From the NCBI GenBank assembly GCA_049305795.1, contig JBAQPM010000006.1, positions 38,902 to 102,901 on the forward strand: a stretch of 64,000 nt of DNA. The letters are read 5' to 3'. The notes beneath the pieces are model-generated. The model searched no databases, had not been told where the DNA came from, and saw only the letters and a list, made by a program, of their open reading frames with translations. This document shows, in pieces, positions 6,962 to 46,203 of the stretch. The position numbers and the translations under genes were made by a program. Within the stretch, counting starts at the first letter, position 1; every line of letters starts with the position of its first letter. The DNA comes from Minisyncoccia bacterium. Its GTDB lineage: Bacteria > Patescibacteriota > Minisyncoccia > Phycocordibacterales > Phycocordibacteraceae.

Positions 6962-7315
6962 ATGGTATACTGGGATCCTATGAATATATTTCTTCATTGG
7001 ATTATCTCCGCAATTGCGATAGTTGTTGCAGCGTATCTGATTCCAGGTGCGAACGTTTCGTTTGTCGGGTCACTCGTTCTTGCTATTGTCCTTGGGCTCA
7101 TTAACCTTACGCTTCGACCACTTATCTTTGTGTTAACTCTTCCGATTAACATTCTGACGCTTGGACTTTTTTCTTTCGTTATAAACGCTCTTCTCATTAT
7201 GCTTGCAGCGGCGATTGTTCCTGGTTTTTCCATCGCTGGTTTTTGGACTGCACTTTTGTTCTCTATCGTTCTCTCCCTCATCAATATCCTTTTTGGAAAG
7301 GGTGCAAAGGCTTAA
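6962..7315 (+). CDS. phage-holin-family 4 (DUF360) membrane protein
   Basis: The 117-aa protein has 4 TM helices. Motifs AAYLIPG, RPLIFVLTLPINILTLGLF and INALLIMLAAAIVPGF are typical of DUF360/Phage_holin_4_2. Confidence 0.65.
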   Translation: MVYWDPMNIFLHWIISAIAIVVAAYLIPGANVSFVGSLVLAIVLGLINLTLRPLIFVLTLPINILTLGLFSFVINALLIMLAAAIVPGFSIAGFWTALLFSIVLSLINILFGKGAKA

Positions 7316-7411: not shown

Positions 7412-7624
7412 ATGCGAGATCTGCCGAGATGCAAAAAGTGTGACACTCAATTCGAGCCCAGATTTTCGGATACCGATGCGACAGATTTCTGTTGCGATCG
7501 GTGTGAACTGCTCCACAAAATTTCGAAATGCGTGGAGCTTGAGGGACACTTAGTGTTTAGACGGCACTCAGACCCCTTTCACCTTGATCCCCTGGTTGAT
7601 CAAAGCATTTATTCACGCAAATAG
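7412..7624 (+). CDS. small Cys-rich zinc-ribbon-like protein
   Basis: Cysteine pairs CKKCD and CCDRCE are present in a 70-aa protein. An intrinsic terminator follows. Confidence 0.35.
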   Translation: MRDLPRCKKCDTQFEPRFSDTDATDFCCDRCELLHKISKCVELEGHLVFRRHSDPFHLDPLVDQSIYSRK

Positions 7625-7628
7625 ACAC

Positions 7629-7655
7629 GGCGCGCCAAAGGCGCGCCGGCTGTTT
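7629..7655 (+). terminator. rho-independent terminator
   Basis: A GC hairpin (cggcgcgcc-aaa-ggcgcgccg) is followed by tgtttta. Confidence 0.6.
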
Positions 7656-7705: not shown

Positions 7706-10459
7706 ATGGAAGGACTTGAACGACCTCTTACAACTCCCGAAGAGGAGCTTGCCTATCTGCGCGCGCAGGTTGAAGCAAAAGAAAAGGAGCTTTTTGCACT
7801 TCGGGAAGTACAGCCACGCGAAGAAGTTGTTCGCGAGCGCATTGTGCATCACCGTAACATCGAAGGGGAGAAGGTCCTTGCATCCGAATACCGTCTTACC
7901 GAACCTGAGGTTCGTGTTCTCGCGCTTAACCTTGATCCGGATGATAACGACGAAACCATAGAGGAACTCCGAGGTATTTTAGAAGCGAAAGGTGTTAAGA
8001 ATGCACTTTCCGTTCTTGAGAAACTTAAAAATCCACACCTCGAAGACGACTTTCACCGCTTCCTTGTGCAATACATTGCAGGCGGCATGGAAGTTAAGGG
8101 TTGGTCGGAGAAAGAGCCAACGTGGAAAGCGCTTCACATGACGCTATATGAGGTTGCCCTTCCTGAACCGACCGGAAGTACGGGCGAAGATCGGGCAAAA
8201 ACCCTCAAAGAGCTTGTTTCTTCGATGGAACAATTTTATTCTGGCATGCTCTCGGTTAGTTCAGGGAGCGCGAGTGATGAACCCTCGTATTTTTCGATGG
8301 AACTCGCTGTTCCAGTGAACCGTCCCGAACTTCTTTTTTATGTTGCCGTGCCTAACCATAAGCGTGCCCTTTTTGAACAACAGCTTCTTGCGATATTTCC
8401 AGATGCGCATCTTGTTCCTCAGCCAAACGACTACAACGTTTTTGCAGAAGACGGTACTACGCAAGTTGCTGTTGCAACCCTTGCCACCAAAGCGGTCCTA
8501 CCGCTAAAAGATTATGCTGACTTTGATTACGACCCGCTAAACGCCTTACTAAATGCTTTCGGGAAAATTGAAGAAGCGGGTGAGGGTGCTGCACTGCAAA
8601 TCGTGATTGAGCCATCAGGAGAACGGTATATTTCGCACTATCGTAAAATCTTGCAAGCGCTGCGGCGTGGAGAAAATCAATCGAAAGCTTTTTCAACTCC
8701 GGAAGGACTCCTGGGCGAAGTCGCACGTGACTTTGGTTCAACATTGTTTGGCAAGTCACGGGATTATAAAGATGAACACGAAACCCGCACGCGCCAAACC
8801 GAAGCAAATAAGACAGATATTGAGCAAGTAGAGAAAAAGATTGCTGCACCCATTGTGCGTACCACCATCCGTCTTTTAGTTTCTTCGAGTAATCCATCTC
8901 GTGCTTCTCTCGGGCTTTCTGATCTTGAGGCTGCCTTTAATCAGTTTGGTAACACCCAGGGAAATCATTTAGTATTCGCGCATCCAACAGGGGAGCGGGC
9001 ACGTCAGGTTTTTAAAAGTTTCTCTTATCGCTTGCCTTCGCCAGACGTGCTTCCGCTTTCGCTTCGTGAACTCACCACGATGTATCATTTTCCTCCGCGG
9101 GGCATTGCATCCACGCCTCAACTCAAACAGTCCCGTTTTGCCGCAGCACCGGCACCAATGCATCTACCTAAGGCAGGACTCCAAATTGGTATAAACACCT
9201 ATCGCGGACAACAAACGGAGGTACGCATTGCGGACGAAGATCGTTTGCGACATCTGTATGTTATTGGTCAGACGGGTGCCGGAAAAACCGGACTCTTGAA
9301 GACAATGATTGCACAAGACATCGCTGAGGGACGCGGCGTTTGTTTTATTGACCCGCACGGCAACGACGTGCTTGATGTTCTTGCCATGGTTCCGCCTGAA
9401 CGTTACGAAGACGTTATTTATTTTGACCCTGCAGAAATTTCTCGGCCGTTCGGGCTTAACATGCTCGAATACGATGAAAACCGTCCCGAGCAAAAAACAT
9501 TTATCGTAAACGAGCTGTTGATGATTTTCCGTCGCTTATATGGCGATGTTCCGGAGTCCATGGGCCCAGCTTTTGAACAATATTTTAGAAACGCGACGCT
9601 TTTGGTGATGGAGTATCCTGAATCGGGTTCCACCATGCTCGATATCGCGCGCGTTCTCTCAAACGAGGAGTTTCGTCGTCTCAAATTGTCGAAAAGCAGA
9701 AATCCAATTGTGAATCAATTTTGGAATGAGATTGCCACAAAGGCGGGAGGAGATGCGGCCCTTGAAAATATCGTTCCCTATATCACCAACAAATTCGACG
9801 ATTTCACCGCAAACGATTTTATTCGTCCCATTGTTGGACAACAGCATTCTTCTTTTAATTTCCGTGAAGTCATTGATTCGAAAAAGATTCTCCTGGTGAA
9901 TCTTTCAAAGGGTCGGCTTGGTGAACGTAATGCAAACCTGCTCGGTCTTATTCTGGTCGGAAAACTTTTCATGGCCGCACTTTCGCGAGCGGATAATCCA
10001 CGCGCGGAATTTCCGCCCTTCTATTTGTATATTGATGAATTTCAGAACATCACGACTGACTCTATTCCAGGCATTCTCTCTGAAGCTCGAAAATACAAGC
10101 TGTCGCTCACCGTGGCACACCAATTTCTTGCCCAAATAGACGATAAAGTTCGCGAAGCGGTTTTTGGAAACGTGGGTTCCATGGCCGTGTTTCGTGTCGG
10201 AGAAGAAGATGCCGAATTTTTTGAGAAACAATTTGCTCCTGTCTTTTCTTCGCTCGATTTTGTGAATATTGAAAATAGAAATGCCTATGTCCGCATTCTT
10301 GCAAACGGAGTTCCGCAAAAGCCTTTCAACATCAAAACACTTGAGCTTCCCAAAGGAAATCAAAACCAAATAGATGATTTGCGTGAACTGTCATACCTCA
10401 CCTATGGTCGCGACCGTCAACAGGTAGAGGATTTCATCCGTGCGCGGTATCTGTCATAA
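7706..10459 (+). CDS. TraG/VirD4/TrwB-like coupling-type P-loop ATPase (FtsK-HerA superfamily) with a large novel N-terminal domain
   Basis: Motifs present: Walker A HLYVIGQTGAGKTGL, Walker B FYLYIDEFQN, and the TraG/VirD4 signature ARKYKLSLTVAHQFLAQI. The ~470-aa N-terminal region has no TM helix and matches no domain I recognise. Confidence 0.7.
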   Translation: MEGLERPLTTPEEELAYLRAQVEAKEKELFALREVQPREEVVRERIVHHRNIEGEKVLASEYRLTEPEVRVLALNLDPDDNDETIEELRGILEAKGVKNALSVLEKLKNPHLEDDFHRFLVQYIAGGMEVKGWSEKEPTWKALHMTLYEVALPEPTGSTGEDRAKTLKELVSSMEQFYSGMLSVSSGSASDEPSYFSMELAVPVNRPELLFYVAVPNHKRALFEQQLLAIFPDAHLVPQPNDYNVFAEDGTTQVAVATLATKAVLPLKDYADFDYDPLNALLNAFGKIEEAGEGAALQIVIEPSGERYISHYRKILQALRRGENQSKAFSTPEGLLGEVARDFGSTLFGKSRDYKDEHETRTRQTEANKTDIEQVEKKIAAPIVRTTIRLLVSSSNPSRASLGLSDLEAAFNQFGNTQGNHLVFAHPTGERARQVFKSFSYRLPSPDVLPLSLRELTTMYHFPPRGIASTPQLKQSRFAAAPAPMHLPKAGLQIGINTYRGQQTEVRIADEDRLRHLYVIGQTGAGKTGLLKTMIAQDIAEGRGVCFIDPHGNDVLDVLAMVPPERYEDVIYFDPAEISRPFGLNMLEYDENRPEQKTFIVNELLMIFRRLYGDVPESMGPAFEQYFRNATLLVMEYPESGSTMLDIARVLSNEEFRRLKLSKSRNPIVNQFWNEIATKAGGDAALENIVPYITNKFDDFTANDFIRPIVGQQHSSFNFREVIDSKKILLVNLSKGRLGERNANLLGLILVGKLFMAALSRADNPRAEFPPFYLYIDEFQNITTDSIPGILSEARKYKLSLTVAHQFLAQIDDKVREAVFGNVGSMAVFRVGEEDAEFFEKQFAPVFSSLDFVNIENRNAYVRILANGVPQKPFNIKTLELPKGNQNQIDDLRELSYLTYGRDRQQVEDFIRARYLS

Positions 10460-10482
10460 TACGGGTACATTCTCAATTTTAT

Positions 10483-13032
10483 ATGTCTGAAATTCCTCCG
10501 CGTATAGTTCCAAATCCCGAAAATGCGCTCGATCCAGGGCGTGCTGAAGCTTTTCAAAAAAGTGCAAAGACAAAAGAAAAAATAGTCTTGGATGCTTCAC
10601 CTGTTTCATCACAAGAGAGTGGGAATACCACGAAGGAGTATAAAGAACGCTTAAGTTGGCTTGTCTCACAATTTCAAAAACCAAAATTAAAGAAAGGCAA
10701 GGAAGCTCAGAGAAATCCAGAAAAAATAAAACCTCTTTCGCCCTTCGCCGAACAAGAATTTAAAAAGGCTCTTTTATCAACAAGCAACGCATCTGAGGTA
10801 ATTTTCTCTGAGCGAAAAAATGAAAATTTCTTAACGACCAAAAAGGGTAATAGTGAACGAATACTTTCAGACACGAAAGCATTTAGAGAAGCCCTTGCGG
10901 TTGCGCGAGCGGAAGATGCTGGGATTGAAATAAAAAAAGCCCGAGAAGATATGCTTGCTGCAGAGCAAGCATATCTTGAGGAGGAAAAGAAATTCCATAA
11001 AAAACATTCCCTATTGGGACGAAAAATGGCTTCACAGCTTGGAAAAATTGATCTTCAAAAGACTGAAGCAGAATATAACGAAAAAAGTCTCGCTTTTGAA
11101 AAGGTGCTTGAGGATCGTCTTAAGAATCGTTTGGCTATAAGAGATTATTCAAAAATCTCTATGTTTGCAGAGGAGCGTGATGAGGAGGGGAATGTGCTTC
11201 GTATTGCAACTAATCCCGAAGATTTTGCGAAGAAAGTGGCAGCACGGTATCGACGTATGATGATTTCGCGGGACATCATTGATCGAGGGGCGACGCAACT
11301 TGCGGAAACGAGAGCTGCAGCACTTGATGCAAAAGGAAAAAAGACATTTGATAAGGCTCTGGGATGGGTGGCGGGACTAAACAAAGGACTCGAAGATAAA
11401 CTTGGTAAAAGGGGTGCGCGTGCAGCTCGTATACTTACGGGCGCTGCCGTAGGTGCATTTGCAGGAAGTCTTACGGGAGGAGCTGGATTCCTTTGGGGAT
11501 TTGGGACACGCACGATGCGTGCAGTACTTGGAACGTCCTTTGGGGCGGCTGCTGGATATGGCGCAGGGAAAGCGTATATGGCTACGCTAGGTAAGGGTGC
11601 CGCAGAAAAGCTTGCTGCCGCGCGCGAAACTGCTGCTACCGATGCTAAGGGAATCAAGGCAAAACGTAAGGCATACGCGAGTGGTACAGAAGAAGCTATT
11701 GCAAGAAAACGGGCACTCGTTGAGTCGCTTACGGCAGTACTTACGGGTGCCGGAGTGTCCATGGAATCTGCCCGCCTGTTTGCAGAAAACGAAATTGTTA
11801 CACAGGCTCTTTCGGATGCTTCAGACTCTGTTAATCCGGTTTCTGCTCCTGAGGCTCTCGCGTCAGTACTGCCACCAAGCCCATTGTTGGCAGTAACGAG
11901 TGTTGAGGTGCGAACCGGGGAGGGTGCCATTGGTCTTTTCAAGCATCTCCAACAACAGCTTCAAGAAACGTATGCGAGTGTTGATCGGGCAACTCTTCCA
12001 CACTCCGTGCAGCATATGCTCACGCTTTCTCCTCAAGAACTCGCTAAAGAGTATGGTTTTTACAATCCATCGGCTGCTGCGGAAAGTGCCCTCATACCAA
12101 GAGGTGCAACCCTTGGCATTGATCCAGGAGGCAGTTTGGTTTACGAGGCGCCAACAGCTCACGGTTCACATCTTATGGTTCTTGAGCAGGGAAGCACGGC
12201 TTCGGTAACTCCTTTTCATGGGACCATGCAAGATACTGATGCGTCTTCGCGGCCAACCCAAGGACCGGTAACTCATTCTGAAACACGAGCTGAAGTTGAT
12301 GCACGAGAACGTGCTGAAACAGCGAGGCTCATGACTGAACAACATCTTCGAAATGTTGAAGCACAACGTGCGTTTGACGCACAGCGCACAGCGCCTCCTG
12401 TAGTTCCAGAAACAGCTCCTGTCCCCACAGCTCCTCCTACTATTGTCCCAGAGACTACTCGTGTTTCTCCCGTGGCTCCTGTTGAAGTTACTCAAGTTCC
12501 TCGTCCAGCTGCGTCTCTCAGTGATTCGGAGAAGTTCAGAATTTTGAGTGAGTGGTCGAAGCTACATAAGGGCGAGCCGTGGCCCCCTGGTGGCCTTGAT
12601 TACGACAAGGCTGCCGCTGAGCTTGCGAATCCGGAAGTATCCAGTTCTTCCGTTGAGTCTCAACCGCTCGCATCCCTCGGACAAGTTCCCGAGACTCCAG
12701 TGATTTCACAAGAGGGAATTGTTCAAGGTATTGATGGTCTTACGGTAAATACCGGAGAAGCCCATGTGTATCAAAACACAGACGATTCTTTCGTTGTTTT
12801 TGGAGGGACTGAGGAAACACGGTCTCGTCTTACATTTGAATTCTTACAAAAAAATCCAAGAGCAACTATCTTGGTGGAAAGCTATACGACGAATGACAAA
12901 GGTCTTACCATTCCATGGAAAATGGTAAATGGAGAGCCTGTACCAGGCGAGCCGATTCGAGATACGTTTCTAGGATTTGGAGGATTTGCAAGTGAGCCTG
13001 ATCCGACTACCTTTAAAAGCAAAATATTATAA
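10483..13032 (+). CDS. large hypothetical protein with a coiled-coil N-terminus, a Gly-zipper TM segment and a Pro/Thr-rich region
   Basis: The 849-aa protein has a Lys/Glu coiled-coil region. A glycine-zipper hydrophobic segment (ILTGAAVGAFAGSLTGGAGFLWGFG) and a PVVPETAPVPTAPPTIVPETT linker are present. Confidence 0.65.
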   Translation: MSEIPPRIVPNPENALDPGRAEAFQKSAKTKEKIVLDASPVSSQESGNTTKEYKERLSWLVSQFQKPKLKKGKEAQRNPEKIKPLSPFAEQEFKKALLSTSNASEVIFSERKNENFLTTKKGNSERILSDTKAFREALAVARAEDAGIEIKKAREDMLAAEQAYLEEEKKFHKKHSLLGRKMASQLGKIDLQKTEAEYNEKSLAFEKVLEDRLKNRLAIRDYSKISMFAEERDEEGNVLRIATNPEDFAKKVAARYRRMMISRDIIDRGATQLAETRAAALDAKGKKTFDKALGWVAGLNKGLEDKLGKRGARAARILTGAAVGAFAGSLTGGAGFLWGFGTRTMRAVLGTSFGAAAGYGAGKAYMATLGKGAAEKLAAARETAATDAKGIKAKRKAYASGTEEAIARKRALVESLTAVLTGAGVSMESARLFAENEIVTQALSDASDSVNPVSAPEALASVLPPSPLLAVTSVEVRTGEGAIGLFKHLQQQLQETYASVDRATLPHSVQHMLTLSPQELAKEYGFYNPSAAAESALIPRGATLGIDPGGSLVYEAPTAHGSHLMVLEQGSTASVTPFHGTMQDTDASSRPTQGPVTHSETRAEVDARERAETARLMTEQHLRNVEAQRAFDAQRTAPPVVPETAPVPTAPPTIVPETTRVSPVAPVEVTQVPRPAASLSDSEKFRILSEWSKLHKGEPWPPGGLDYDKAAAELANPEVSSSSVESQPLASLGQVPETPVISQEGIVQGIDGLTVNTGEAHVYQNTDDSFVVFGGTEETRSRLTFEFLQKNPRATILVESYTTNDKGLTIPWKMVNGEPVPGEPIRDTFLGFGGFASEPDPTTFKSKIL

Positions 13033-13038
13033 AGACGT

Positions 13039-13332
13039 ATGGATGTTTCTACCCAAAAAAATCTACTTCAAGCACTCAATCTAGAAGATTTTCCGCTGAA
13101 AGAACAAGAAGAAATGCTTCTTAGTGTTGGTGATCTTGTATTTAAAAATTCACTGGTAAAACTTTTGGAGCAGATGGATGATGCAATGAAAGATGCTTTC
13201 GCAGCACTACTTGAAAAAAATCCTTCAGAAGAGGAGGTGGTCGCTTTCCTCCAGAAAGTGCCGGGAGCAGATAAGGCAGTTGCTGAGACTGTACAGGAGC
13301 TTACGGATGATATACTAGCGGCAACCAAATAA
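13039..13332 (+). CDS. small acidic hypothetical protein
   Basis: The 97-aa protein is tightly packed 6 nt after the upstream gene. Confidence 0.5.
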   Translation: MDVSTQKNLLQALNLEDFPLKEQEEMLLSVGDLVFKNSLVKLLEQMDDAMKDAFAALLEKNPSEEEVVAFLQKVPGADKAVAETVQELTDDILAATK

Positions 13333-13343
13333 TTATCGAGCAT

Positions 13344-13865
13344 ATGAACATCACTGGTACCGGAGTTGCAGTCGCCCTTGCCGTTTCTGTGGCTCTCGCG
13401 TTCTTGTTTTTCGGGCCTGCTATATTTACTTCTTTTAATGCAGCTTCTAATTCCGCCGCAACAGCGGAGGCAACAACAGATATGACTCTTCCTGCAAATG
13501 ATGGTGCAATTGATTCAGTTCCTACACAAGATTCAGATACATTAAGAATTAATGACGCAAAAGTGGGAATGGGTGCCACTGCGGAGGCGGGTGACACGGT
13601 CACAGTGAATTATGTTGGCGCACTCACTGACGGTACTGTTTTTGATGCTTCACAAAATCATGGTCAGCCATTTACCTTCACGCTTGGTTCAGGCGAGGTG
13701 ATTTCTGGATGGGACCAAGGTCTTGTTGGTATGAAAGAGGGAGGACAGCGTTTGCTTGTTATTCCTGCCAACATGGCGTATGGAGATAAGGCTGTAGGTC
13801 CGATACCAGCGAATTCGACACTTGTTTTTCAGGTTGAGTTGGTAAAAGTAGAGAAAGGAAAATAG
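13344..13865 (+). CDS. FKBP-type peptidyl-prolyl cis-trans isomerase, membrane-anchored
   Basis: There is an N-terminal TM or signal segment. The FKBP core reads GDTVTVNYVGALTDGTVFDASQNHGQPFTFTLGSGEVISGWDQGLVGMKEGG. Confidence 0.85.
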   Translation: MNITGTGVAVALAVSVALAFLFFGPAIFTSFNAASNSAATAEATTDMTLPANDGAIDSVPTQDSDTLRINDAKVGMGATAEAGDTVTVNYVGALTDGTVFDASQNHGQPFTFTLGSGEVISGWDQGLVGMKEGGQRLLVIPANMAYGDKAVGPIPANSTLVFQVELVKVEKGK

Positions 13866-13882: not shown

Positions 13883-13927
13883 AAAACCGCCGAGTTTTCG
13901 TGAGAAAACTCGGCGGTAGTGTTTGTT
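13883..13927. terminator. bidirectional terminator between convergent genes
   Basis: The hairpin is ccgccgagttttc-gtga-gaaaactcggcgg, with A-runs on one side and T-runs on the other. Confidence 0.6.
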
Positions 13928-14480
13928 AGTACGGGCTCTTAGTCAGAACCGAGATACTGTATTCTTCGTAGCCCGGTCGGGTCACGAGCTCTCGAAGACA
14001 ATTTTCAAAGGTATAGGTTTTACCTCCACCTTGGACAATGCCGTTCGCGATCCCACCCATGCCGTATACGGACCCGGTATACTGGGCATATTCGCCAATC
14101 ATGCCAGCAGTCCCCGCAAAAGCTTGGGAACCGAGCGCGCCGCCGGCAGCACCTGCGAGCGCATAGACCACGCCGTTGATGGCAATGGCTACGAATTCGT
14201 TGGGCCTGACCACGCTTGTATACTCCTGGCACGCAACTTCCGCGTCGGCGATGAACTTCTGGAGGCCAGGAGTCTTGTCGCCTGCCCGCACGATGTAGTT
14301 CATTTTGAGGCCGCTTGTCCGCAAGAGCCAGTCCGGAACGTCCTGGTTGTGTGCGACGATGACCGACGTAATGCCGTTGGGCGCCGTGAAGGGAATCTGC
14401 ACAGCCTCACCTTGAACACAGCCGGCAACGAGAGTTGCAGCCAAGGAGGCCGCAATAATGGGATTGGACTTGTTCCTCAT
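13926..14480 (-). CDS. lipoprotein with a Gly-zipper-like C-terminal domain
   Basis: A lipobox (LVAGC) follows the signal peptide. A glycine-rich region GAAGGALGSQAFAGTAGMIG is present, and the RBS ggagg lies upstream on the minus strand. Confidence 0.65.
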   Translation of the reverse strand: MRNKSNPIIAASLAATLVAGCVQGEAVQIPFTAPNGITSVIVAHNQDVPDWLLRTSGLKMNYIVRAGDKTPGLQKFIADAEVACQEYTSVVRPNEFVAIAINGVVYALAGAAGGALGSQAFAGTAGMIGEYAQYTGSVYGMGGIANGIVQGGGKTYTFENCLRELVTRPGYEEYSISVLTKSPY

Positions 14481-14632
14481 CGGAACCTCCTTGGTTGGAA
14501 TTGAAGGGAATCTCTCAAAAGAGACTCCGAACTTCTGAGGTTAATTATATACCTATACTACATACTTGTCAATAGCCCTAATAGGCCCGTGTTTACTTGC
14601 TCAAATGGCGCGCGGCGGATAGGGTAAGGGGA

Positions 14633-15853
14633 ATGGCGGCTATCTCTTTTTCGATAGAAAAGCGCGCGACCAAAGGTCGCGCGCGTTCTGGCATTTTGAA
14701 AACGCCTCATGGCGATATCCAAACCCCTGCCTTTGTCCCTGTTGGAACCAAGGCAAACGTAAAAGGCATTTTACCTACAGCGCTTGAATCGCTTGGTGCA
14801 CAGGTCGTTCTTGCAAACACCTATCATCTGTATCTACAGCCTGGTGAAAAAATAGTCGAACAGGCAGGAGGTTTGGGAAAATTTATGGGATGGCATGGTC
14901 CCACCATGACTGATTCCGGCGGATACCAAGTCTTTTCCCTCGGAGCTGCCTTTGGTCGAAACGTGACTAAGATTGCAAAGGGCGAAGAAAAACCACGAGA
15001 GCATAGTGTCGCAATGTATGACGACGAGGTGCGTAGCCAACACGGACAACTTGCCGTGATTGACGACGAGGGAGTTACCTTCACCTCGCACATCGATGGG
15101 TCACTCCATCGTTTTACTCCCGAACGTTCCATTGAAATTCAACACGCCCTCGGCGCTGATATGTTTTTTGCTTTTGACGAATGCACGGCACCCACCGAAA
15201 GCTATGAATACCAAAGGGAAGCCATGGAGCGTACCCATCGCTGGGCAGAACGTTCTCTTAAGGCCCATCGACAAAACATCGAGGCAAGTAAAAAACAAGC
15301 GATCTTCGGCATCGTACAGGGAGGTCGTCACGAGGATTTGCGAAAAGAATCAGCGCGTGAAATTGCCTCGATGGGTTTTGACGGCATCGGCATCGGAGGC
15401 TCTTTCAGTAAGGAAGACATGCGAGGCGCACTGCAAGCGGCAGTGGGCGAATTGCCCGAAGAACTTCCAAAACATTTCCTTGGCATTGGCGAGCCCGGAG
15501 ATGTGCTTGAGGGTATTGCACATGGTATGGATCTTTTCGACTGTGTGGCGGCGACCCGCATCGGACGGCACGGTTCGGTGTATACGAAACGCGGCATCAT
15601 TCACATCACTGGCGAAAAATATAAAGATGACTTCGGGCCGCTTGATCCGCGAATCATCATTCCTGGCACAGAGAGATTCACCCGTGCCTACATTGCCCAC
15701 CTCGTTCGCTCTGGTGAAATGCTCGGCTCTGTTATTTGTTCCATGCACAACGTCGGCTTTATTTTGAAACTTGTTGACGAGGCACGCGCGGCTATTACGA
15801 ATGGACAATTTGATGACTTCCGGCGAGACTTTATACGCGACTACTATGGCTAA
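14633..15853 (+). CDS. tgt: queuine tRNA-ribosyltransferase (tRNA-guanine transglycosylase)
   Basis: Tgt motifs DSGGYQVFSL, FAFDECT, LGIGEPGD...DLFDCV and RAYIAHL are present. The start at 14633 follows aagggga. Confidence 0.9.
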   Translation: MAAISFSIEKRATKGRARSGILKTPHGDIQTPAFVPVGTKANVKGILPTALESLGAQVVLANTYHLYLQPGEKIVEQAGGLGKFMGWHGPTMTDSGGYQVFSLGAAFGRNVTKIAKGEEKPREHSVAMYDDEVRSQHGQLAVIDDEGVTFTSHIDGSLHRFTPERSIEIQHALGADMFFAFDECTAPTESYEYQREAMERTHRWAERSLKAHRQNIEASKKQAIFGIVQGGRHEDLRKESAREIASMGFDGIGIGGSFSKEDMRGALQAAVGELPEELPKHFLGIGEPGDVLEGIAHGMDLFDCVAATRIGRHGSVYTKRGIIHITGEKYKDDFGPLDPRIIIPGTERFTRAYIAHLVRSGEMLGSVICSMHNVGFILKLVDEARAAITNGQFDDFRRDFIRDYYG

Positions 15854-17915
15854 TTTTAAACTTCACTCCCCGTTTCCTCCTGCGGGCGATCAGCCCAAGG
15901 CTATCGAAGCTCTTTCAAAGGGTCTTGATAAAGGTCTTGTCCACCAGACACTTCTTGGGGTGACCGGCTCAGGGAAAACATATACTGCCGCGAATGTCAT
16001 CGCGCACCTTGATAAACCAACGCTGGTGTTGGCACACAACAAAACCCTTGCCGCCCAGCTTGCCCAGGAGTATCGCGAATTTTTCCCTGAAAATGCGGTG
16101 CATTATTTTGTTTCTTACTACGACTATTATCAGCCGGAAGCATATATCGCACACTCAGACACCTATATTGAAAAAGAGGCTCAGATAAATGCGGAGATTG
16201 ATCGTTTGCGCCACGCAGCAACGCAGGCCCTCCTTACCCGCAAAGATGTGATCATTGTGGCTTCGGTTTCTGCCATTTACGGTCTTGGTTCACCAGAACA
16301 ATACGAAAAGGTGCATGTGAAGCTTGTTAATGGTGCAGAAGTTGAGGGCGGCAGAGCAGGTCTCATCCGTCAGCTCATTCGTATTTACTTTGAACGCACG
16401 AATGCTGACCTTGAGCCAGGAAACATTCGAGCGGTGGGGAACGCGGTTGAGTTTATGCCAGTAAACGAACGCTCTATTTATCGTGTGCGTTTTGACGGCG
16501 ATAGCATCGCAGCAATCGAAACGCTTGATCCGATTTCTCGTGCACGCACGGGGGAGGTTGATTCTGCGTTTATTTTTCCTGCAAAGCACTTCGTGACCGA
16601 TGAACACGAACGTCTGCGTGCCATTGAAGACATAAAGCTTGAACTTGATGAACAGCTTGCAAAATTAAAGCGAGAAGAAAAGCCGCTTGAGGCGGAACGT
16701 CTCAAGCGGCGTACCCTTCACGACCTCTCACTCATTCGCGAAATTGGCTACACCAACGGCATTGAAAACTACTCACGGCATTTTGATGGACGAAAACCAG
16801 GAGAGCCGCCCCACACACTCCTTTCGTATTTTCCACATAAAAAAGATGGCTCGGCAGATTTTCTTACGGTCATTGACGAGTCGCACGTGACCATTTCACA
16901 AATTGGTGGCATGTATGCAGGTGATCGTTCGCGAAAAGATGTGTTGGTGGAATATGGTTTTCGTTTGCCTTCTGCGCGCGACAATCGCCCGCTTATGTTT
17001 TCAGAGTTTGAAGAACGTGTCGGACAGCGAATTTACACCTCGGCAACGCCAGGTCCCTATGAACGTGAACACTCAATTGCCCCCGTGGGTCAAATTGTTG
17101 AACAAATTATTCGCCCTACGGGACTTATTGATCCAGAACTAGTCATTCGCCCGGTAACCGAAACGGGTGATTTTCGAGGACAAGTTGCAGACTTTATTGA
17201 TGAGGCGGCTACAGTCATTAAACGCGGTGGCCGCGTTCTTGCGACAACGCTCACCAAACAAATGGCAGAAGATCTCTCTTCTTTTCTTAGGGCACGCGAT
17301 ATCAAAGCAGAGTATCTTCACTCCGACATCAAAACCATTGACCGCATTACCATCCTTACTGAATTTCGAAAGGGAACATTTGATATTTTGGTTGGCGTGA
17401 ACCTTCTTCGTGAAGGGCTCGATCTTCCCGAGGTTGAGCTGGTCGGCATACTCGATGCAGATAAAGAAGGTTTTCTCCGTAGCGAGACATCACTCATTCA
17501 AACTATTGGACGTGCAGCGCGCAACATCCTCGGACGGGTTATTTTGTATGCTGACAACATGACCGGCTCCCTTGAACGAGCCATTTCAGAAACGAATCGT
17601 CGCCGAGCGGTTCAAGTTGCCTACAACACCAAGCACGGCATCACACCAATAACTATTAAAAAAGAAATTCGAGATATTGCAGAATCCATCCGCAGCGAAC
17701 ACGACAAAACGGTGGATTCACTTCTCTCCATTGATGCAAAACTATACCGGGAAGACCCAGCAACGTTTGTCGAAGACAAGCGCCGCCAGATGGACGAAGC
17801 AGTGGAGGCACTCGATTTTGAAACGGCGGCGCTCATTCGTGATGAACTCTATGCACTTACGGGCGAAGGTAAGGGAAAAAAGAAATCCAGACCCACAAAG
17901 CGCAGAGGCCGTTAG
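15846..17915 (+). CDS. uvrB: excinuclease ABC subunit B
   Basis: UvrB helicase motifs (GVTGSGKT, the beta-hairpin region YYDYYQPEAY) are present. The start overlaps the tgt stop (ATGGCTAA). Confidence 0.95.
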   Translation: MANFKLHSPFPPAGDQPKAIEALSKGLDKGLVHQTLLGVTGSGKTYTAANVIAHLDKPTLVLAHNKTLAAQLAQEYREFFPENAVHYFVSYYDYYQPEAYIAHSDTYIEKEAQINAEIDRLRHAATQALLTRKDVIIVASVSAIYGLGSPEQYEKVHVKLVNGAEVEGGRAGLIRQLIRIYFERTNADLEPGNIRAVGNAVEFMPVNERSIYRVRFDGDSIAAIETLDPISRARTGEVDSAFIFPAKHFVTDEHERLRAIEDIKLELDEQLAKLKREEKPLEAERLKRRTLHDLSLIREIGYTNGIENYSRHFDGRKPGEPPHTLLSYFPHKKDGSADFLTVIDESHVTISQIGGMYAGDRSRKDVLVEYGFRLPSARDNRPLMFSEFEERVGQRIYTSATPGPYEREHSIAPVGQIVEQIIRPTGLIDPELVIRPVTETGDFRGQVADFIDEAATVIKRGGRVLATTLTKQMAEDLSSFLRARDIKAEYLHSDIKTIDRITILTEFRKGTFDILVGVNLLREGLDLPEVELVGILDADKEGFLRSETSLIQTIGRAARNILGRVILYADNMTGSLERAISETNRRRAVQVAYNTKHGITPITIKKEIRDIAESIRSEHDKTVDSLLSIDAKLYREDPATFVEDKRRQMDEAVEALDFETAALIRDELYALTGEGKGKKKSRPTKRRGR

Positions 17916-22373: not shown

Positions 22374-22432
22374 AATTGACCTCCTTCTTGGTACGTTCTA
22401 GATATATATCGTACCATGGGTATACCGCCCTT

Positions 22433-23755
22433 ATGGAAAGAAGCGCACTAAAAGCATACGACCTTCCGGATGTTCCCGGAGTGTATTTGTTTTCCACGGG
22501 AAGGGGTCGTGGGAAAAAGGTCACCTATGTAGGCAAGGCAACCAGTCTTCGCGACCGGGTGCGCTCGTATTTTGATGACGACCTTATTGCCACTCGGGGG
22601 CCGCGTGTTGTGGACATGGTCACCAAGGCTGATGGGCTTTCATACGAAACTACTCCCACCGTGCTTGAAGCTTTGGTGCGCGAAGCGGCGCTCATTCGCA
22701 AATATCATCCCTATGCAAACGTAGAGGGAAAGGATGATAAAACATTTCTGTACGCCGTCATTACTGACGAAATCATTCCGCGTGTTCTTGCTATACGGGG
22801 CAAAGATTTGGAACAGCTTGCCAGTGGCAGCTGGCAGCTGGCAGAAGAATCCTCTGCTATACATCTGCCCACTGCAAGCCGCAAGCTGCACGCGGTCCAT
22901 GGTCCGTTTCCGTCGGGTTACCAACTTCGCGAGGGGCTCCGTCTCATTCGTCGTGTTTTTCCTTTTTATGATACCGATCAGCCCATTACCATTGATGCCT
23001 CCACGGGGCGTTTGATGCGCGGAGGAAACAAACACCATCAGGCAAAAGTAGAATTCAATCGTCAAATTGGACAGTATCCTCGGGAATTCAACCGAAAAGA
23101 ATATTTGCGCTCTATTCGAAACGTCTCTCTTTTTCTTGAGGGGGAAACCCGGGCGCTTCGGCAAATGCTTACGCGCGAAATGAAAAAGGCTGCGGAAGAC
23201 GAGCGATTTGAAGATGCTGCTGATATTCGCCGACAACTTTTCTCTCTTGACCACATACAGGATGTCTCGCTCATTAAGGAAGAACGAGATCATGATGCAA
23301 ACAGTCCTCGCATTGAGGCATATGACACTGCACACATCTCAGGCACGAATGCCATTGCAGTGATGACCGTTGTAGACGGAGGCGTGCCGGTAAAACGCGA
23401 TTATCGAACATTTCGTATACGAGGAGTCAGGGGCAAACAATTAAATGACGACATTGCTTCTTTAAAAGAAGTTCTTTCTCGAAGACTTCCACACACCGAA
23501 TGGCAATACCCCCGTGTCATTGTGGTGGATGGCGGAAAAACCCACAAAAAAGCAGCAGAGGATGTCTTAAAAGAAGCTGGTGTTGCCATTCCGGTTGTTG
23601 CCGTGGTGAAAGATGAAAGGCATCGTCCTCGAGAAGTCATTGGTGCTCGGGTCGCGGGTATTTCCGAAGCAGATGCAGTGCTCGCAAACAGCGAAGCGCA
23701 CCGTTTTGCTCTTCTACGCCACCGCAGAGCTCGACAAAAGAATTTGCGGGTATAG
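22433..23755 (+). CDS. uvrC: excinuclease ABC subunit C, short form lacking C-terminal HhH
   Basis: It has an N-terminal GIY-YIG (GVYLF...YVGKA), a UVR domain (FEDAADIRRQLFSL) and an RNase-H-like endonuclease domain. The protein ends without an HhH. Confidence 0.85.
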   Translation: MERSALKAYDLPDVPGVYLFSTGRGRGKKVTYVGKATSLRDRVRSYFDDDLIATRGPRVVDMVTKADGLSYETTPTVLEALVREAALIRKYHPYANVEGKDDKTFLYAVITDEIIPRVLAIRGKDLEQLASGSWQLAEESSAIHLPTASRKLHAVHGPFPSGYQLREGLRLIRRVFPFYDTDQPITIDASTGRLMRGGNKHHQAKVEFNRQIGQYPREFNRKEYLRSIRNVSLFLEGETRALRQMLTREMKKAAEDERFEDAADIRRQLFSLDHIQDVSLIKEERDHDANSPRIEAYDTAHISGTNAIAVMTVVDGGVPVKRDYRTFRIRGVRGKQLNDDIASLKEVLSRRLPHTEWQYPRVIVVDGGKTHKKAAEDVLKEAGVAIPVVAVVKDERHRPREVIGARVAGISEADAVLANSEAHRFALLRHRRARQKNLRV

Positions 23756-28791: not shown

Positions 28792-29250
28792 ATGGAAAGA
28801 AAACTTCTCACGCTCTGCATACTTCAGCACGAGGGGCGGTTCTTACTTGGAATGAAAAAGAAAGGAATGGGAACGGGGAACTGGAATGGTTTTGGGGGAA
28901 AGGTTGAAGAAGGGGAGGCTATTGAAGTTGCGGCAAAAAGGGAAATGCAAGAAGAGTCTGGAGTAATCGTTTTAGACTTAGAAGAAGTGGGCGTGCTTAT
29001 GTTTACGGCACCAACGCGGCCACCTCTTGAAATGCATATTTTCAAATCAACAAAATATACGGGGACGCCAATTGAAAGCGATGAAATGAAACCGGAATGG
29101 TTTTACAAAGACGAGTTACCTTTTGGCGGAATGTGGTCTTCCGACCTTTACTGGTGGCCGTTATTTTTGCGGGGCAAACGTTTTACTGGCGACTTTGTCT
29201 TTGATGAAAACGATAAGGTGATTTCTCACGAACTTACGGAAGTTATTTAG
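28792..29250 (+). CDS. NUDIX hydrolase (MutT-like)
   Basis: The Nudix box is GGKVEEGEAIEVAAKREMQEESGV. Confidence 0.85.
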   Translation: MERKLLTLCILQHEGRFLLGMKKKGMGTGNWNGFGGKVEEGEAIEVAAKREMQEESGVIVLDLEEVGVLMFTAPTRPPLEMHIFKSTKYTGTPIESDEMKPEWFYKDELPFGGMWSSDLYWWPLFLRGKRFTGDFVFDENDKVISHELTEVI

Positions 29251-42335: not shown

Positions 42336-43292
42336 ATGGAAAACACACCCGTTGCAAAAGCAGAACCGAAAGATTTTTTTCTCTGGGCCGGTGCGCTTAT
42401 AGCACTCTATGCCGCTATCACATCATTCATCACTCTCCTTTTTGAATACATAAATTATTCGTTTCCAGATTCTCTTGCCGGATGGAGCGACCCGTATAGC
42501 GGCAGCATCCGCTTTTCAATGGCAGCACTTATTGTGCTCGCGCCAACTGTGCTCATCCTCATGCGTCTCATTCGAAACAGCATCGCCGCACATCCAGAAA
42601 AGGCAACTGTGTGGGTGCGAAGGTGGGCACTCATGCTCACGCTTTTTGCCGCCGGAGCAACCATTGTTATTGATCTCATTACGCTCCTTTACACATTTCT
42701 CGGGGGAGAAATATCGACCCGATTTTCCCTTAAGGTTGCCGTCATCTTGCTTGTTGCTGTGCTCGTATTCCTTCATTTTCTTGCCGACATAAAAGGCTAT
42801 TGGATACGGGAACGAGCCAAGGCAAACCTGGTTGGAATTGCAGTGTTTGTACTCGCACTTCTTTCGGTGGTTGCTGGTTTCTTTATCGTTGGTAGTCCAA
42901 ACGATATTCGCATGGTTCGTTACGATGAACGCAAGGTTTCTGATCTTCAGGCGATTCAATGGGAGCTCGTTAATTTTTGGCAACAAAAGCAGACTCTTCC
43001 AAAAACTCTCGATGAACTAAAAGATCCACTCAGCTCGTTCATGGTCCCTATGGATATCCAGACAGACGCGCCGTATGTATATGAAGTTGTTGATGCGCGT
43101 TCGTTCAAGCTCTGCGCCACGTTCAATCGCGAAACGCAGGATACCAAAGGACGCGGCGAGTATCCGGCCTATTACGATACATCCCTTGGTTCGGGAGGTA
43201 CCTTTGAAAATTGGAAACATGGGGAAGGGGTAACGTGCTTCACGCGCACCATTGATCCGCAGCGTTATCCTCCTCTTACCAAGGGCATATAA
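42336..43292 (+). CDS. DUF5671-like membrane protein
   Basis: A 6-TM N-terminal half is followed by a soluble C-terminal domain. The architecture is common in Patescibacteria. Confidence 0.5.
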   Translation: MENTPVAKAEPKDFFLWAGALIALYAAITSFITLLFEYINYSFPDSLAGWSDPYSGSIRFSMAALIVLAPTVLILMRLIRNSIAAHPEKATVWVRRWALMLTLFAAGATIVIDLITLLYTFLGGEISTRFSLKVAVILLVAVLVFLHFLADIKGYWIRERAKANLVGIAVFVLALLSVVAGFFIVGSPNDIRMVRYDERKVSDLQAIQWELVNFWQQKQTLPKTLDELKDPLSSFMVPMDIQTDAPYVYEVVDARSFKLCATFNRETQDTKGRGEYPAYYDTSLGSGGTFENWKHGEGVTCFTRTIDPQRYPPLTKGI

Positions 43293-43305
43293 GGGGCCAG
43301 GTTCC

Positions 43306-46203
43306 ATGCGGGGATACGACCATCGGGAGATAGAAAAACGTACCCAGGAAAAATGGGCGGCTTCGGAGCTGTACGTTACCGATCTCTCAGATAAAGAAAA
43401 AGAACCGTACTATCTTTTAACGGAATTTCCGTATCCATCAGGCGACCTTCACATTGGTCACTGGTATGCCTTTGCTATACCTGATATCTTTGCACGCTAT
43501 CTGCGCATGAAAGGGAAAAATGTACTTTTCCCTGTTGGTTTTGATGCCTTCGGTCTTCCTGCTGAAAACGCTGCTTTCAAAAATGGTGCGGATCCGAAAG
43601 AGTGGACGTATGCAAACATGGACCGCATGCGCACCCAGCTTAAAAGCATGGGAACCTCTTTTGATTGGTCTAAAGAAGTTGTTACTGCAGAACCCTCTTA
43701 CTACAAATGGACCCAGTGGCTTTTTGCGAAGCTCTTTGAGCATGGTCTTGCGACGCGAAAAGAAGCTCCAGTGAAATGGTGTCCGAAAGACCAGACGGTG
43801 CTTGCAAACGAACAGGTGATTGATGGGAAGTGTGAACGTTGTGGCACTGAGGTTGAAGAAAAAAGACTTACGCAGTGGTTTATGAAAATCACCGAGTATG
43901 CTGATCGGCTGCTCTCTGATTTAGACGCACTTCCGTGGCGCGAAGACATTAAGGACGCGCAGCGTACGTGGATAGGAAAGTCCGAAGGGGCCAAAATCAA
44001 GTTTAGAGTCAAGGGTCAAGAGTTACCGGAAGCTCATGACTCGCAACTTTCAACTCATGACTTCATTGAAGTGTTTACGACGCGTCCTGAAACTATTTTT
44101 GGTGCAACTTATCTCGTAATTGCACCGGAACACCCACTCGTGGCCCAGCTTGCAGGGAGCGACTTGCCGGGAGCAGTGAAAAATGTAGAAGAGGTACAGA
44201 AATATATTGAAGCAACAAAGAAAAAGACCGAGCGTGAACGATCAGAAAATAAGGAAAAAACAGGAATCAAACTTGAAGGTATGGTTGCGATTAATCCCGC
44301 AACGAAAGAAGAAATCCCAGTGTATGTTGGAGAGTATGTACTCGGTTCATACGGCACGGGCGCTCTCATGGCCGTGCCGGCGCACGATGAGCGAGATTTC
44401 GAATTTGCAAAGAAACATACCATTCCTGTGCGTCATGTAGTTATTCCTCGATTCATTGACGAGAGAAACCCACATGTTCCGGGTAAGGAATTGGTCCCTC
44501 GAAACATCATCATTGGCATTGTGTACGATCCAAAGACGGGAAAATATTTGGGCCTCAAATGGAAGAAACAATCGTGGACGACATTTATTACAGGCGGCAT
44601 CGATGGCGATGAGGATCCCGTGGACGCGGCGCGCCGAGAGATACACGAAGAGACAGGATACAAAAATTTGAAATATATCCGCACACTTGGTGGACCGACA
44701 CAATCGGAATTTTTTGCCGCGCATAAAGACGTAAATCGCATTACCCGAGCGACAAGCATTCTTTTTGAACTTGAAGACGAAGAACGAGACGAGGTGGGGA
44801 TTGAAGAGTTAGAACAACATGAAGTTGCTTGGCTCGACGAGTCTGATGTTACACGAGAAAAAATGCAGCATGCAGAACTCGACATTATTCGATTCCGACT
44901 CTTAAACGAGGAAGCCGATTACTATACGGAACCCGGGATACTCACCGATTCAGGGATTTTTTCAGGTCGTGAAAGCGAGGAGGCAAAATGGGACATTGTC
45001 GAGGCGGTCGGTGGGGAACGCACCACGCAATACCGCATGCGAGACTGGCTTGTGTCGAGACAGCGTTACTGGGGGTGTCCTATTCCAGTTGTCTACGACC
45101 CAGAAGGCAGGGCACATTTGGTGCCTGCAGAGCATCTTCCCTGGCTTCTTCCGACGGACGTGGATTTCACGCCGACAGGAAAATCCCCACTCGCTTCTTC
45201 AAAAGAACTTCACGAGCGCGTTACGAAAATTTTTGGTGAAGGATGGACACCAGAGTATGACACACTCGATACCTTCGTAGATTCCTCCTGGTATTTCTTG
45301 CGTTATCTCGACGCGAAAGACTCGCATGATTTTTCTGATCAGGGGTTGATGAAACAGTGGCTTCCCATAAACCGCTACTCAGGTGGAAGTGAACACACCA
45401 CGATGCATCTTTTGTATGCACGCTTCTTCCACAAAGCACTGTACGATTTGGCACTTGTCCCAACTCCAGAGCCTTTCAATGAACGATTCAATCGTGGACT
45501 CATTATGGGAACTGACGGACAAAAAATGAGCAAGCGATGGGGAAATGTGGTAAATCCCGACGAAATGGTGGAGCGTTATGGCGCGGATGCGGTGCGGGTC
45601 TACCTTGCTTTCATTGGGCCTTATAACGAACCAGGCCACTACCCTTGGAATCTTGAAGGGGTTTCTTCCATGCGGAAGTTTTTGGAGCGTATTGCAGCAC
45701 TTTCTGAAAACCTTTCGGACGACAGTGCTACGGAAAATATATTACGCGCCTTTGCAAAAACCCAAACGAAGTTGGATGCGGATATCGAACGATTCAAACT
45801 CAACACTGCCGTTTCTGCGCTTATGGTGCTCGTGCGCGACCTTGAAGCTCTTTCTAATGTGCCTAAAAGCGCATGCCAAGACCTTCTTCGTTTTGTTGCT
45901 CCTTTCGCACCACATCTTGCAGAACATCTATGGGAACAGACAGGAGGAGGGGGGAGTGTCCACATGGCACCTTGGCCAACGTTTGACCCTTCACTTTTGA
46001 TTGAAGATACTGTTTCGGTGGTTGTGCAGGTAAATGGAAAACGACGTGCAAATATTTCTGTTTCTCCAGATGCTGACGAAGCAGTGGTTGTAAAAGAGGC
46101 TCGTGTGCTCCCTTCTGTGGAGACGGCACTCTCTGGAAAAGAGCCAATTCGGGTGATCTATGTGCCCGGGAAAATACTTAACCTGGTGACAAAGCAGGCT
46201 TAA
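43306..46203 (+). CDS. leuS: leucyl-tRNA synthetase carrying an inserted NUDIX hydrolase domain
   Basis: Class I motifs HIGH (HIGHWY) and KMSKR are present. The CP1 editing region runs TTRPETIFGATYLVIAPEH...GTGALMAVPAHDERDFEF. Before RMRDWLVSRQRYWG lies a ~125-aa insert (nt ~44485-44870) with a perfect Nudix box GGIDGDEDPVDAARREIHEETGY. Confidence 0.9.
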   Translation: MRGYDHREIEKRTQEKWAASELYVTDLSDKEKEPYYLLTEFPYPSGDLHIGHWYAFAIPDIFARYLRMKGKNVLFPVGFDAFGLPAENAAFKNGADPKEWTYANMDRMRTQLKSMGTSFDWSKEVVTAEPSYYKWTQWLFAKLFEHGLATRKEAPVKWCPKDQTVLANEQVIDGKCERCGTEVEEKRLTQWFMKITEYADRLLSDLDALPWREDIKDAQRTWIGKSEGAKIKFRVKGQELPEAHDSQLSTHDFIEVFTTRPETIFGATYLVIAPEHPLVAQLAGSDLPGAVKNVEEVQKYIEATKKKTERERSENKEKTGIKLEGMVAINPATKEEIPVYVGEYVLGSYGTGALMAVPAHDERDFEFAKKHTIPVRHVVIPRFIDERNPHVPGKELVPRNIIIGIVYDPKTGKYLGLKWKKQSWTTFITGGIDGDEDPVDAARREIHEETGYKNLKYIRTLGGPTQSEFFAAHKDVNRITRATSILFELEDEERDEVGIEELEQHEVAWLDESDVTREKMQHAELDIIRFRLLNEEADYYTEPGILTDSGIFSGRESEEAKWDIVEAVGGERTTQYRMRDWLVSRQRYWGCPIPVVYDPEGRAHLVPAEHLPWLLPTDVDFTPTGKSPLASSKELHERVTKIFGEGWTPEYDTLDTFVDSSWYFLRYLDAKDSHDFSDQGLMKQWLPINRYSGGSEHTTMHLLYARFFHKALYDLALVPTPEPFNERFNRGLIMGTDGQKMSKRWGNVVNPDEMVERYGADAVRVYLAFIGPYNEPGHYPWNLEGVSSMRKFLERIAALSENLSDDSATENILRAFAKTQTKLDADIERFKLNTAVSALMVLVRDLEALSNVPKSACQDLLRFVAPFAPHLAEHLWEQTGGGGSVHMAPWPTFDPSLLIEDTVSVVVQVNGKRRANISVSPDADEAVVVKEARVLPSVETALSGKEPIRVIYVPGKILNLVTKQA

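Follow-up and report, generated by a model that had tools for sequence, protein, structure and literature searches.

Here, we describe a four-gene locus in a 64,000-nucleotide stretch of DNA (hereafter, the window; contig JBAQPM010000006.1 of assembly GCA_049305795.1) that comes from a Minisyncoccia metagenome-assembled genome, i.e., from Paceibacteria-type Patescibacteria. The first gene encodes a 917-amino-acid (aa) protein that is very likely a coupling-type P-loop ATPase without a membrane anchor and with the architecture of VirB4. It is followed by genes for a hyper-variable 849-aa envelope protein, a small acidic protein and a membrane-anchored FKBP-type peptidyl-prolyl isomerase. An earlier reading of this DNA (the original prediction) had listed the same four open reading frames (ORFs) together with the motifs given below, and all are present as described, the ORFs lying on the plus strand (917, 849, 97 and 173 aa). 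The features of the locus are as follows.

7628-7648, plus strand: 9-bp G+C hairpin with a T-run after it; probable terminator of the preceding unit, delimiting the operon on its 5' side (hairpin scan and sequence)
7706-10459, plus strand: ATPase gene (917 aa; ORF); DUF8128 plus coupling-protein-type motor, VirB4/VirD4 superfamily
7706-8095, plus strand: helical N-terminal extension of the ATPase, residues 1-130 (predicted helices within 11-125; distant members begin at query residue ~140)
8123-9115, plus strand: DUF8128 core of the ATPase, residues ~140-470, with a predicted VirB4 N-terminal-domain fold
9266-9292, plus strand: Walker A motif GQTGAGKTG, residues 521-529 (sequence and alignment)
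10022-10048, plus strand: Walker B motif YLYIDEFQN, residues 773-781 (sequence and alignment)
10085-10138, plus strand: coupling-protein signature ARKYKLSLTVAHQFLAQI, residues 794-811, within the TraG-D_C match (sequence and alignment)
10483-13032, plus strand: gene for the hyper-variable envelope protein (849 aa; ORF)
11413-11607, plus strand: Gly/Ala-rich Gly-zipper segment of the 849-aa protein in two blocks, residues 311-375; putative membrane segment or hairpin
12313-12702, plus strand: Pro-rich linker (15% Pro) of the 849-aa protein, residues 611-740
13039-13332, plus strand: gene for an acidic helical protein, probably of the DUF5663 family (97 aa; ORF)
13344-13865, plus strand: gene for the membrane-anchored FKBP-type peptidyl-prolyl isomerase (173 aa; ORF)
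13886-13917, unstranded: 14-bp bidirectional hairpin separating convergent genes and delimiting the operon on its 3' side (hairpin scan)

The gaps between the four genes measure 23, 6 and 11 nucleotides (nt), in line with the original prediction that the 849-aa protein, the acidic protein and a membrane FKBP lie tightly downstream of the ATPase. Because these gaps are short and because strong hairpins occur at the locus only at its two ends, the arrangement suggests that the ATPase, 849-aa, DUF5663 and FKBP genes form one transcription unit (7706-13865). A TATACT -10-like box is located ~7 nt 5' of the ATPase ATG at 7706. A sigma-70 promoter scan of the plus strand is uninformative, giving fewer matches than in shuffled sequences, and there are no tandem repeats of note in the locus.

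The ATPase motor (residues ~490-880) is of the coupling-protein (TrwB/VirD4) type. First, the TraG-D_C model matches at 24.7 bits versus a Pfam cut-off of 22, and the CD1115 VirD4-like NCBIfam model covers residues 507-837 (E = 6.8e-11). Second, a homologue from a shorter subfamily (P0248) matches TrwB_AAD_bind at 41.6 bits (9.6e-11; profile positions 10-312 of 387) and T4SS-DNA_transf at 31.2 bits (1.4e-7). Third, the ATPase family profile finds TrwB at 3.4e-8 and DotL at 1.4e-5 among PDB sequences, where it finds neither FtsK nor any VirB4 (TrwK and TpsVirB4 are not reached at E <= 0.1). Fourth, the full-length AlphaFold model, with a predicted local distance difference test (pLDDT) score of 85.4, has an all-alpha insertion between Walker A and Walker B (predicted, residues 596-724), and Foldseek aligns the model to TrwB with template modelling (TM) scores of 0.63-0.68 (target-normalised). 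All NCBIfam equivalog scores are far under their cut-offs, and the ATPase is therefore a distant member of the coupling proteins and not an equivalog. Matches to FtsK_SpoIIIE (15.9 bits versus 24; residues 505-536) and to DUF87/HerA (22.6 bits versus 23.2) are sub-threshold and cover only the P-loop. Thus, among the models that the original prediction had singled out for searching, TrwB_AAD_bind and T4SS-DNA_transf are matched by P0248, whereas HerA (DUF87) stays sub-threshold; and the ATPase, as foreseen, is not an FtsK, nor is it a HerA. No transmembrane helix is found in the ATPase, whose Kyte-Doolittle mean over 19 residues peaks at 1.53 for residues 742-760, inside the ATPase core. With TraG-D_C above its cut-off, this agrees with the earlier description of a TraG/VirD4-type P-loop ATPase lacking transmembrane helices. 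In an alignment of 80 sequences of ~35-75% identity, the catalytic residues G521, T523, G524, G526, K527, D777, E778, R795, K796, Y797 and Q806 are invariant. As judged from its sequence, the ATPase is soluble and strongly constrained and has intact catalytic motifs.

The N-terminal half, which the original prediction had taken for a novel domain, belongs to a described family and has a recognisable predicted fold. Pfam PF26449 (DUF8128) is precomputed for a 100%-identical protein (P0001) and for nearly all homologues; the assignment comes from these precomputed records, and the local Pfam scan of the ATPase did not report the model. The DUF8128 core terminates in a conserved linker, E455..H461-F-P463..P471, and is preceded by the helical extension, for which no sequence similarity to DUF5663 was found. 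The DUF8128 half is predicted to have a VirB4-type N-terminal-domain fold: the top Foldseek matches of the model are full-length TrwK/VirB4, with ~900-930 aligned columns and E = 7e-13 at 9-11% identity. The likeness of the N-domain to VirB4 shows in structure and not in sequence. The VirB4 sequence models CagE_TrbE_VirB, AAA_10 and TraC_F_IV give no match to the ATPase in the Pfam scan, and NCBIfam VirB4_plasma matches just 34 P-loop residues (518-551; E = 0.0018).

Comparison with known systems places the ATPase between two families. Like VirB4/TrwK of R388 (PDB 7o42 and 8rtd), it has a RecA-type ATPase behind a ~350-aa N-terminal domain and lacks transmembrane helices; unlike VirB4/TrwK, to which its identity is as low as given above, it has no VirB4 sequence-model match, no linkage to virB3, virB6 or virB8 and an extra 130-aa helical N-terminal extension. 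Like VirD4/TrwB/TraG/DotL, it has the motor sequence matches, the all-alpha insertion between the Walker motifs and the TM-score to TrwB; unlike VirD4/TrwB, it has a predicted VirB4-like N-domain in place of the transmembrane domain, and its gene is chromosomal and vertically inherited with neither a relaxase nor a type IV secretion system (T4SS) neighbourhood. The ATPase is thus neither a strict VirD4 (it lacks the transmembrane domain and the linkage) nor a strict VirB4 (it lacks the sequence-model match and the linkage) and resembles each in one half. HerA and FtsK-SpoIIIE are of the same P-loop superfamily, and HerA is present among the structural matches of the ATPase model (Foldseek); however, the ATPase has only the sub-threshold P-loop matches to them in Pfam and lacks the HerA barrel, a NurA-type partner and a nuclease neighbour as well as the transmembrane and gamma domains of FtsK. 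A class of type IV coupling proteins (T4CPs) lacking the transmembrane domain is recognised and depends on a separately encoded membrane protein, e.g., TraJ of pIP501 with TraI (PMC7434980). Database labels for homologues of the ATPase include 'TraM recognition domain-containing', 'type IV secretory system conjugative DNA transfer family' and 'DUF87', and no mention of DUF8128 or DUF5663 was found in the literature searched.

More distant relatives are found in Bacillus phages and on plasmids. The phrog_5156 model matches ATPase residues 167-911 (4.5e-66), and these relatives are colinear with the second half of DUF8128, the 'EL..FP' linker and the motor. For instance, a 913-aa DUF87 protein of the B. 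subtilis plasmid CP120602.1 aligns to residues 237-903 (2e-22), and colinear relatives also occur on haloarchaeal and actinomycete plasmids. No transmembrane helix is predicted in the CP120602.1 protein or in gp203 of phage SP-10, and gp156 of phage G has one strongly hydrophobic segment in its N-terminal region. The phage and plasmid relatives differ from the window ATPase in that identity is 21-23%, they reside on mobile or viral replicons, and none has a characterised function. A scan of IMG/VR returned 13 distant matches only, most of them over the ATPase domain alone; the DUF8128 family is therefore not primarily viral, and we reject a viral origin of the ATPase. The CP120602.1 copy is located 5' of TcpD/TcpE-family conjugation genes. 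We considered it as the coupling protein of pLS20 and rejected this, as p48 of pLS20 has 786 aa and two transmembrane helices and CP120602.1 carries Tcp-type genes. As side observations, SP-10 gp203 (L088 5254-7785) is a DUF8128-type ATPase homologue, and in phage G, gp156 directly follows gp155, a 549-aa VirB4/TraG-P-loop-like protein (L089 2943-7085, gp155-gp156), forming an unexplained pair of T4SS-type ATPases.

The ATPase is not the orphan that the original prediction described: it is a near-universal gene of Paceibacteria. A search of 5.8 billion proteins returned >1,600 homologues, and the best 120 of these have 67-100% identity, are nearly all full length (897-956 aa; three are shorter), come from Patescibacteria or Paceibacteria sources and almost all carry DUF8128. 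Relatives are encoded in the genomes of at least 559 GTDB species representatives, all of them Patescibacteria (Paceibacteria/Minisyncoccia). When only the first 490 residues served as query, we obtained 927 representative clusters with full-length members of 800-1,120 aa, the more distant of which lack the first ~140 residues. The N-terminal extension (1-130) is specific to a subfamily of ~910-930 aa and is missing in a second one of ~800-850 aa (Portnoybacteria and others), which has the same DUF8128-plus-motor design. We fetched 84 genomic loci, distinguishing clade A (63-75% identity to the window ATPase) from clade B (49-56%). The gene order in clade A is Phage_holin_4_2 ... ATPase - large protein - DUF5663 - FKBP - TGT - UvrB, and median pairwise identity within this clade is 65% for the ATPase as compared with 70% (TGT) and 75% (UvrB). 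In clade B, SecY, Adk and Map are encoded 5' and Ndk 3' of the ATPase (assigned by eye from N-terminal sequences). By synteny and identity, the ATPase gene is a vertically inherited core gene of Paceibacteria under housekeeping-grade constraint and is not on a mobile element.

Three further features of these neighbourhoods were observed. The Phage_holin_4_2-family protein has four transmembrane segments (117 aa; window 6962-7315), and its gene lies 1-4 genes 5' of the ATPase gene in ~30 clade-A loci; in the window, a Cys-rich 70-aa ORF (7412-7624; 6 Cys, no homologues found) and the terminator-like hairpin separate the two. In clade B (loci L051-L084, e.g., L054 10001-12724), the spc ribosomal-protein operon has the ATPase gene inserted at its end. 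In all three short-subfamily loci, a Pfam-less ORF of 140-163 aa lies directly 5' of the ATPase (L085 7473-7964, L086 7523-7993 and L087 7563-7985) with gaps of 7-36 nt, and it may be a conserved partner there.

According to a recent survey of Patescibacteria (Quinonero-Coronel et al. 2025; PMC12102498), 5,713 VirD4-type homologues occur in 2,918 of 3,035 genomes (96%), i.e., ~2 per genome, and only 148 of the 5,713 are near virB4. These 'T4CP homologues' are very probably the same set of proteins as the DUF8128 ATPases. Exaptation is already raised there as a possibility; the accessible parts of the survey do not describe the domain architecture, the VirB4-like N-domain or the clade-specific operon.

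The 849-aa protein behaves very differently from the ATPase. Among the same 5.8 billion proteins, its only homologue is itself. By a local iterative hidden Markov model on the fetched loci, we found positional orthologues of 492-1,267 aa, located directly 3' of the ATPase in 38 of 48 clade-A loci. The orthologue starts about -110 to +60 nt from the ATPase stop in 37 of the 38, and a 100-aa ORF lies between in the remaining one. Five of the 48 loci are complete and lack the orthologue, with FKBP directly after the ATPase, and another five are incomplete or ambiguous. None of 35 clade-B loci has an orthologue, the three short-subfamily loci have other neighbours, and no orthologue was found anywhere else within +/-10 kb of the ATPase in the fetched loci. 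The original prediction had tied the pairing to its presence in related genomes; this holds for most of clade A and breaks down in five of its loci and throughout clade B, which counts in part against that prediction. Because the partner is found only beside the ATPase while the ATPase also occurs in loci without the partner, the dependency is asymmetric, with the partner relying on the ATPase but not the ATPase on the partner.

Global identity among the orthologues has a median of 21% and a maximum of 35%; in one pair of genomes in which the ATPases are 84% and the UvrB proteins 93% identical, it is only 22%. In residues 311-375 of the window protein, Gly makes up 25% and Ala 26% of the sequence, and 7 of the 12 GxxxG motifs of the whole protein fall there. 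The glycine zipper that the original prediction had noted is thus present; however, its status as a transmembrane segment is less clear, the hydrophobicity being marginal in the window protein (maximum 1.24) and reaching 1.5-2.2 in most orthologues. The Pro-containing linker, also noted there, is borne out by the composition of residues 611-740. The net charge is +10 in the N-terminal part and -20 in the C-terminal part, and the C-terminal module comprises ~100 aa. No Pfam domain was found in 24 orthologues and no sequence homologue in the PDB; a weak tape-measure-like match (E = 0.29) was dismissed as compositional. We read the 849-aa protein as a fast-evolving, bitopic Gly-zipper envelope protein of one sub-clade.

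The 97-aa protein is acidic (20 Asp and Glu versus 9 Lys and Arg). It scores 15.2 bits against DUF5663 with a cut-off of 23.7, and positional orthologues score 26.2 and 23.8 bits and have precomputed matches too; on this sequence evidence, it probably belongs to DUF5663. One DUF5663 orthologue (L010 16514-16810) has a weak, sub-threshold match to IcmW (E = 0.0078), which we note as a lead only; in the Dot/Icm coupling-protein complex, IcmW serves as a small adaptor. The 173-aa protein has an FKBP_C domain at residues 79-167 (E = 6e-34) and a single strong N-terminal transmembrane segment at residues 10-28 (score 2.42). A 193-aa ORF 3' of the FKBP gene (13923-14504, plus strand) is probably spurious; on the opposite strand, an ORF of 184 aa (13926-14480) has a lipoprotein-like N-terminus (...LVAGC) and orthologues in three related loci (L021, L028 and L012), and a perfect promoter consensus, TTGACA-17-TATAAT, lies on the minus strand at 14572-14544.

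Taking the locus as a whole, we lean towards a cytoplasmic ATPase of the VirB4/VirD4 branch of the FtsK-HerA superfamily that docks at the envelope and is served by clade-specific accessories. In the structures of the R388 T4SS, the VirB4 N-domain is a platform that binds the tails of VirB3 and VirB8 at the membrane. Because of this platform, and because of the precedent of coupling proteins without a transmembrane domain described above, we propose that the ATPase is recruited to the membrane through DUF8128. Without an anchor of its own, it would dock via the VirB4-like N-domain on the cytoplasmic tails of membrane proteins, and ATP hydrolysis would supply the energy for assembly or for delivering substrates at the envelope. 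The 849-aa Gly-zipper protein may be a clade-specific membrane adaptor or cargo; the DUF5663 protein, which is small and acidic, may act as an adaptor or chaperone, and the membrane-anchored FKBP as an extracytoplasmic foldase; all three would be clade-specific accessories rather than obligatory partners. This functional part of the proposal, i.e., membrane recruitment and envelope assembly or substrate delivery, draws on analogy, and we offer it tentatively. The ATPase would most likely work at the chromosomal monoderm-type T4SS that is encoded elsewhere in most Patescibacteria; such a system is reported for ~80% of Patescibacteria, VirB4 for 2,417 genomes and, in Paceibacteria, a virB4 location near dnaA/dnaN (PMC12102498).

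Several observations weigh against an envelope-docking ATPase that works with a T4SS. First, no T4SS gene was linked to the ATPase in any of ~90 loci examined, so its connection to a T4SS is one that we infer. Neither relaxase nor T4SS genes were found in the 64-kb window or in the annotated or clustered flanks of related loci, and virB3, virB6, virB8 and trsD were likewise not found in the window or the related loci. Second, genomes with coupling-protein homologues (2,918) outnumber those with VirB4 (2,417), and some organisms may therefore have the ATPase without a T4SS (PMC12102498). Third, in the one genetically tractable Patescibacterium, the coupling-protein homologue, not necessarily one with DUF8128, is reported by the same source to be non-essential while the T4SS genes are essential (PMC12102498). 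Fourth, the VirB4-like N-domain is a feature of a predicted structure at 9-11% identity, and an N-domain sequence profile found nothing among PDB sequences. Fifth, synteny also takes in FKBP, TGT and UvrB, so that adjacency is weak evidence of functional coupling at this depth.

Alternatively, the ATPase and the 849-aa, DUF5663 and FKBP proteins could form a self-contained, minimal translocon for DNA or protein that is independent of the T4SS, much as the original prediction had it. The four-gene operon is tight and bounded by hairpins at both ends; the partner, when present, is always directly 3' of the ATPase and never elsewhere, and has a charged, presumably cytoplasmic N-terminal region in addition to the Gly-zipper segment. 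Coupling proteins without transmembrane helices that use a separate membrane protein provide a precedent (PMC7434980), and the excess of Patescibacteria genomes with coupling-protein homologues over those with VirB4 fits as well (PMC12102498). However, the partner is missing from 5 clade-A loci, from 35/35 clade-B loci and from the three short-subfamily loci, while across the same loci the ATPase holds 50-75% identity at full length. Moreover, the partner has a rate of evolution comparable to that of a surface antigen (median identity 21%), an ill fit for an obligatory core subunit, and no polytopic channel-forming protein is encoded in the operon. The notion of a minimal module or obligate pair thus finds no support, and we consider a self-contained translocon unlikely.

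It is equally doubtful that the ATPase is a housekeeping cytoplasmic motor for nucleic acids, akin to FtsK or HerA and acting in chromosome handling, DNA uptake or repair, with the downstream genes being mere syntenic neighbours. Such a motor would fit the core-gene behaviour of the ATPase, its contexts beside UvrB/UvrA/UvrC or SecY-Adk-Map-Ndk, the location of homologues among replication genes in large Bacillus phages, the presence of HerA among the structural matches and the weak P-loop matches to DUF87/HerA and FtsK_SpoIIIE. Yet these last matches are both sub-threshold and confined to the P-loop, the family profile matches coupling proteins and not FtsK, and neither a NurA or Mre11/Rad50 partner nor an FtsK gamma domain was seen. 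Also, the only solved context of a VirB4-type N-domain (TrwK in the R388 inner-membrane complex) is a membrane-bound machine, not a DNA-binding module.

A more far-reaching reading, which we regard as improbable, is that the DUF8128 ATPases are a distinct, ancient third lineage beside VirB4 and VirD4. In Paceibacteria, this lineage would work apart from the T4SS as the motor of a dedicated pathway by which hyper-variable surface proteins with a part in host attachment, the 849-aa neighbour for one, are exported or installed. If true, a VirB4-type docking domain retained on a VirD4-type motor would mark these ATPases as a surviving intermediate form between the two families, the DUF5663 protein would be an adaptor or chaperone and the anchored FKBP a foldase on the outside.

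Finally, a mobile-element remnant or an anti-phage defence ATPase (mad8/HerA-like or phage-derived) is highly improbable: PADLOC mad8 does match residues 512-842 (1.4e-13), alongside the weak HerA matches, the phrog_5156 match and the homologues in Bacillus phages G and SP-10 and on plasmids, but synteny is stable and vertical with 65-75% identity across hundreds of species, no integrase, transposase, defence-island neighbour or other mad gene of the window was seen, and IMG/VR holds only the 13 distant matches. We rejected the defence reading for a gene that is vertically conserved in housekeeping contexts.

The wider window has a housekeeping character. We scanned 53 ORFs, including every non-nested ORF of at least 150 aa in the window (ORFs of <150 aa outside the locus were left out). 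They are either housekeeping genes, among them UvrA/B/C, TGT, Ddl, F-ATPase subunits, LeuRS, AlaRS, MnmA, S4 and RpoA, or ORFs without a match. None of the 53 matches relaxase, VirB4, VirB6 or pilin families, and the absence of linked relaxase, VirB4 and pilin genes stated in the original prediction holds. Some of these genes have unusual features. The LeuRS (983 aa; 43252-46203) has an internal NUDIX match at residues 438-542 (E = 5.7e-12), just past the editing domain; such an insertion is unusual for LeuRS, and a separate stand-alone NUDIX protein is encoded at 28792-29250. The longest UvrB ORF (15771-17915, TTG start) overlaps the end of TGT (14597-15853) by 83 nt; the true start is probably near 15852, as family models align only from residue 28. 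The UvrC-like ORF (22376-23755) is short, 459 aa; its sole matches are to the UVR motif and to the RNase H endonuclease domain of UvrC, with no GIY-YIG N-terminal nuclease domain among them.

Three aspects of this work appear to be new: DUF8128 as a domain that, in predicted structure, resembles the VirB4 N-domain and so gives a hybrid VirB4/VirD4 architecture; the housekeeping-grade conservation of the DUF8128 ATPase gene; and a clade-specific operon with a hyper-variable envelope protein. Patescibacteria rely on envelope machines for life on host cells. According to reviews, the T4SS is essential in the one genetically tractable Patescibacterium, a Saccharibacterium, yet contains no recognised coupling protein or relaxase, and the ~2 unlinked 'T4CP' genes per Patescibacteria genome are assigned no role in surveys (PMC12102498). 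An anchor-less ATPase that is conserved like TGT and UvrB and has a predicted docking domain makes it testable which membrane tails are bound and whether these belong to the T4SS or to a separate export route. The DUF8128 ATPase is a candidate intermediate form for the split between VirB4 and VirD4, and the hyper-variable 849-aa envelope protein is a candidate determinant of the interaction with host cells.

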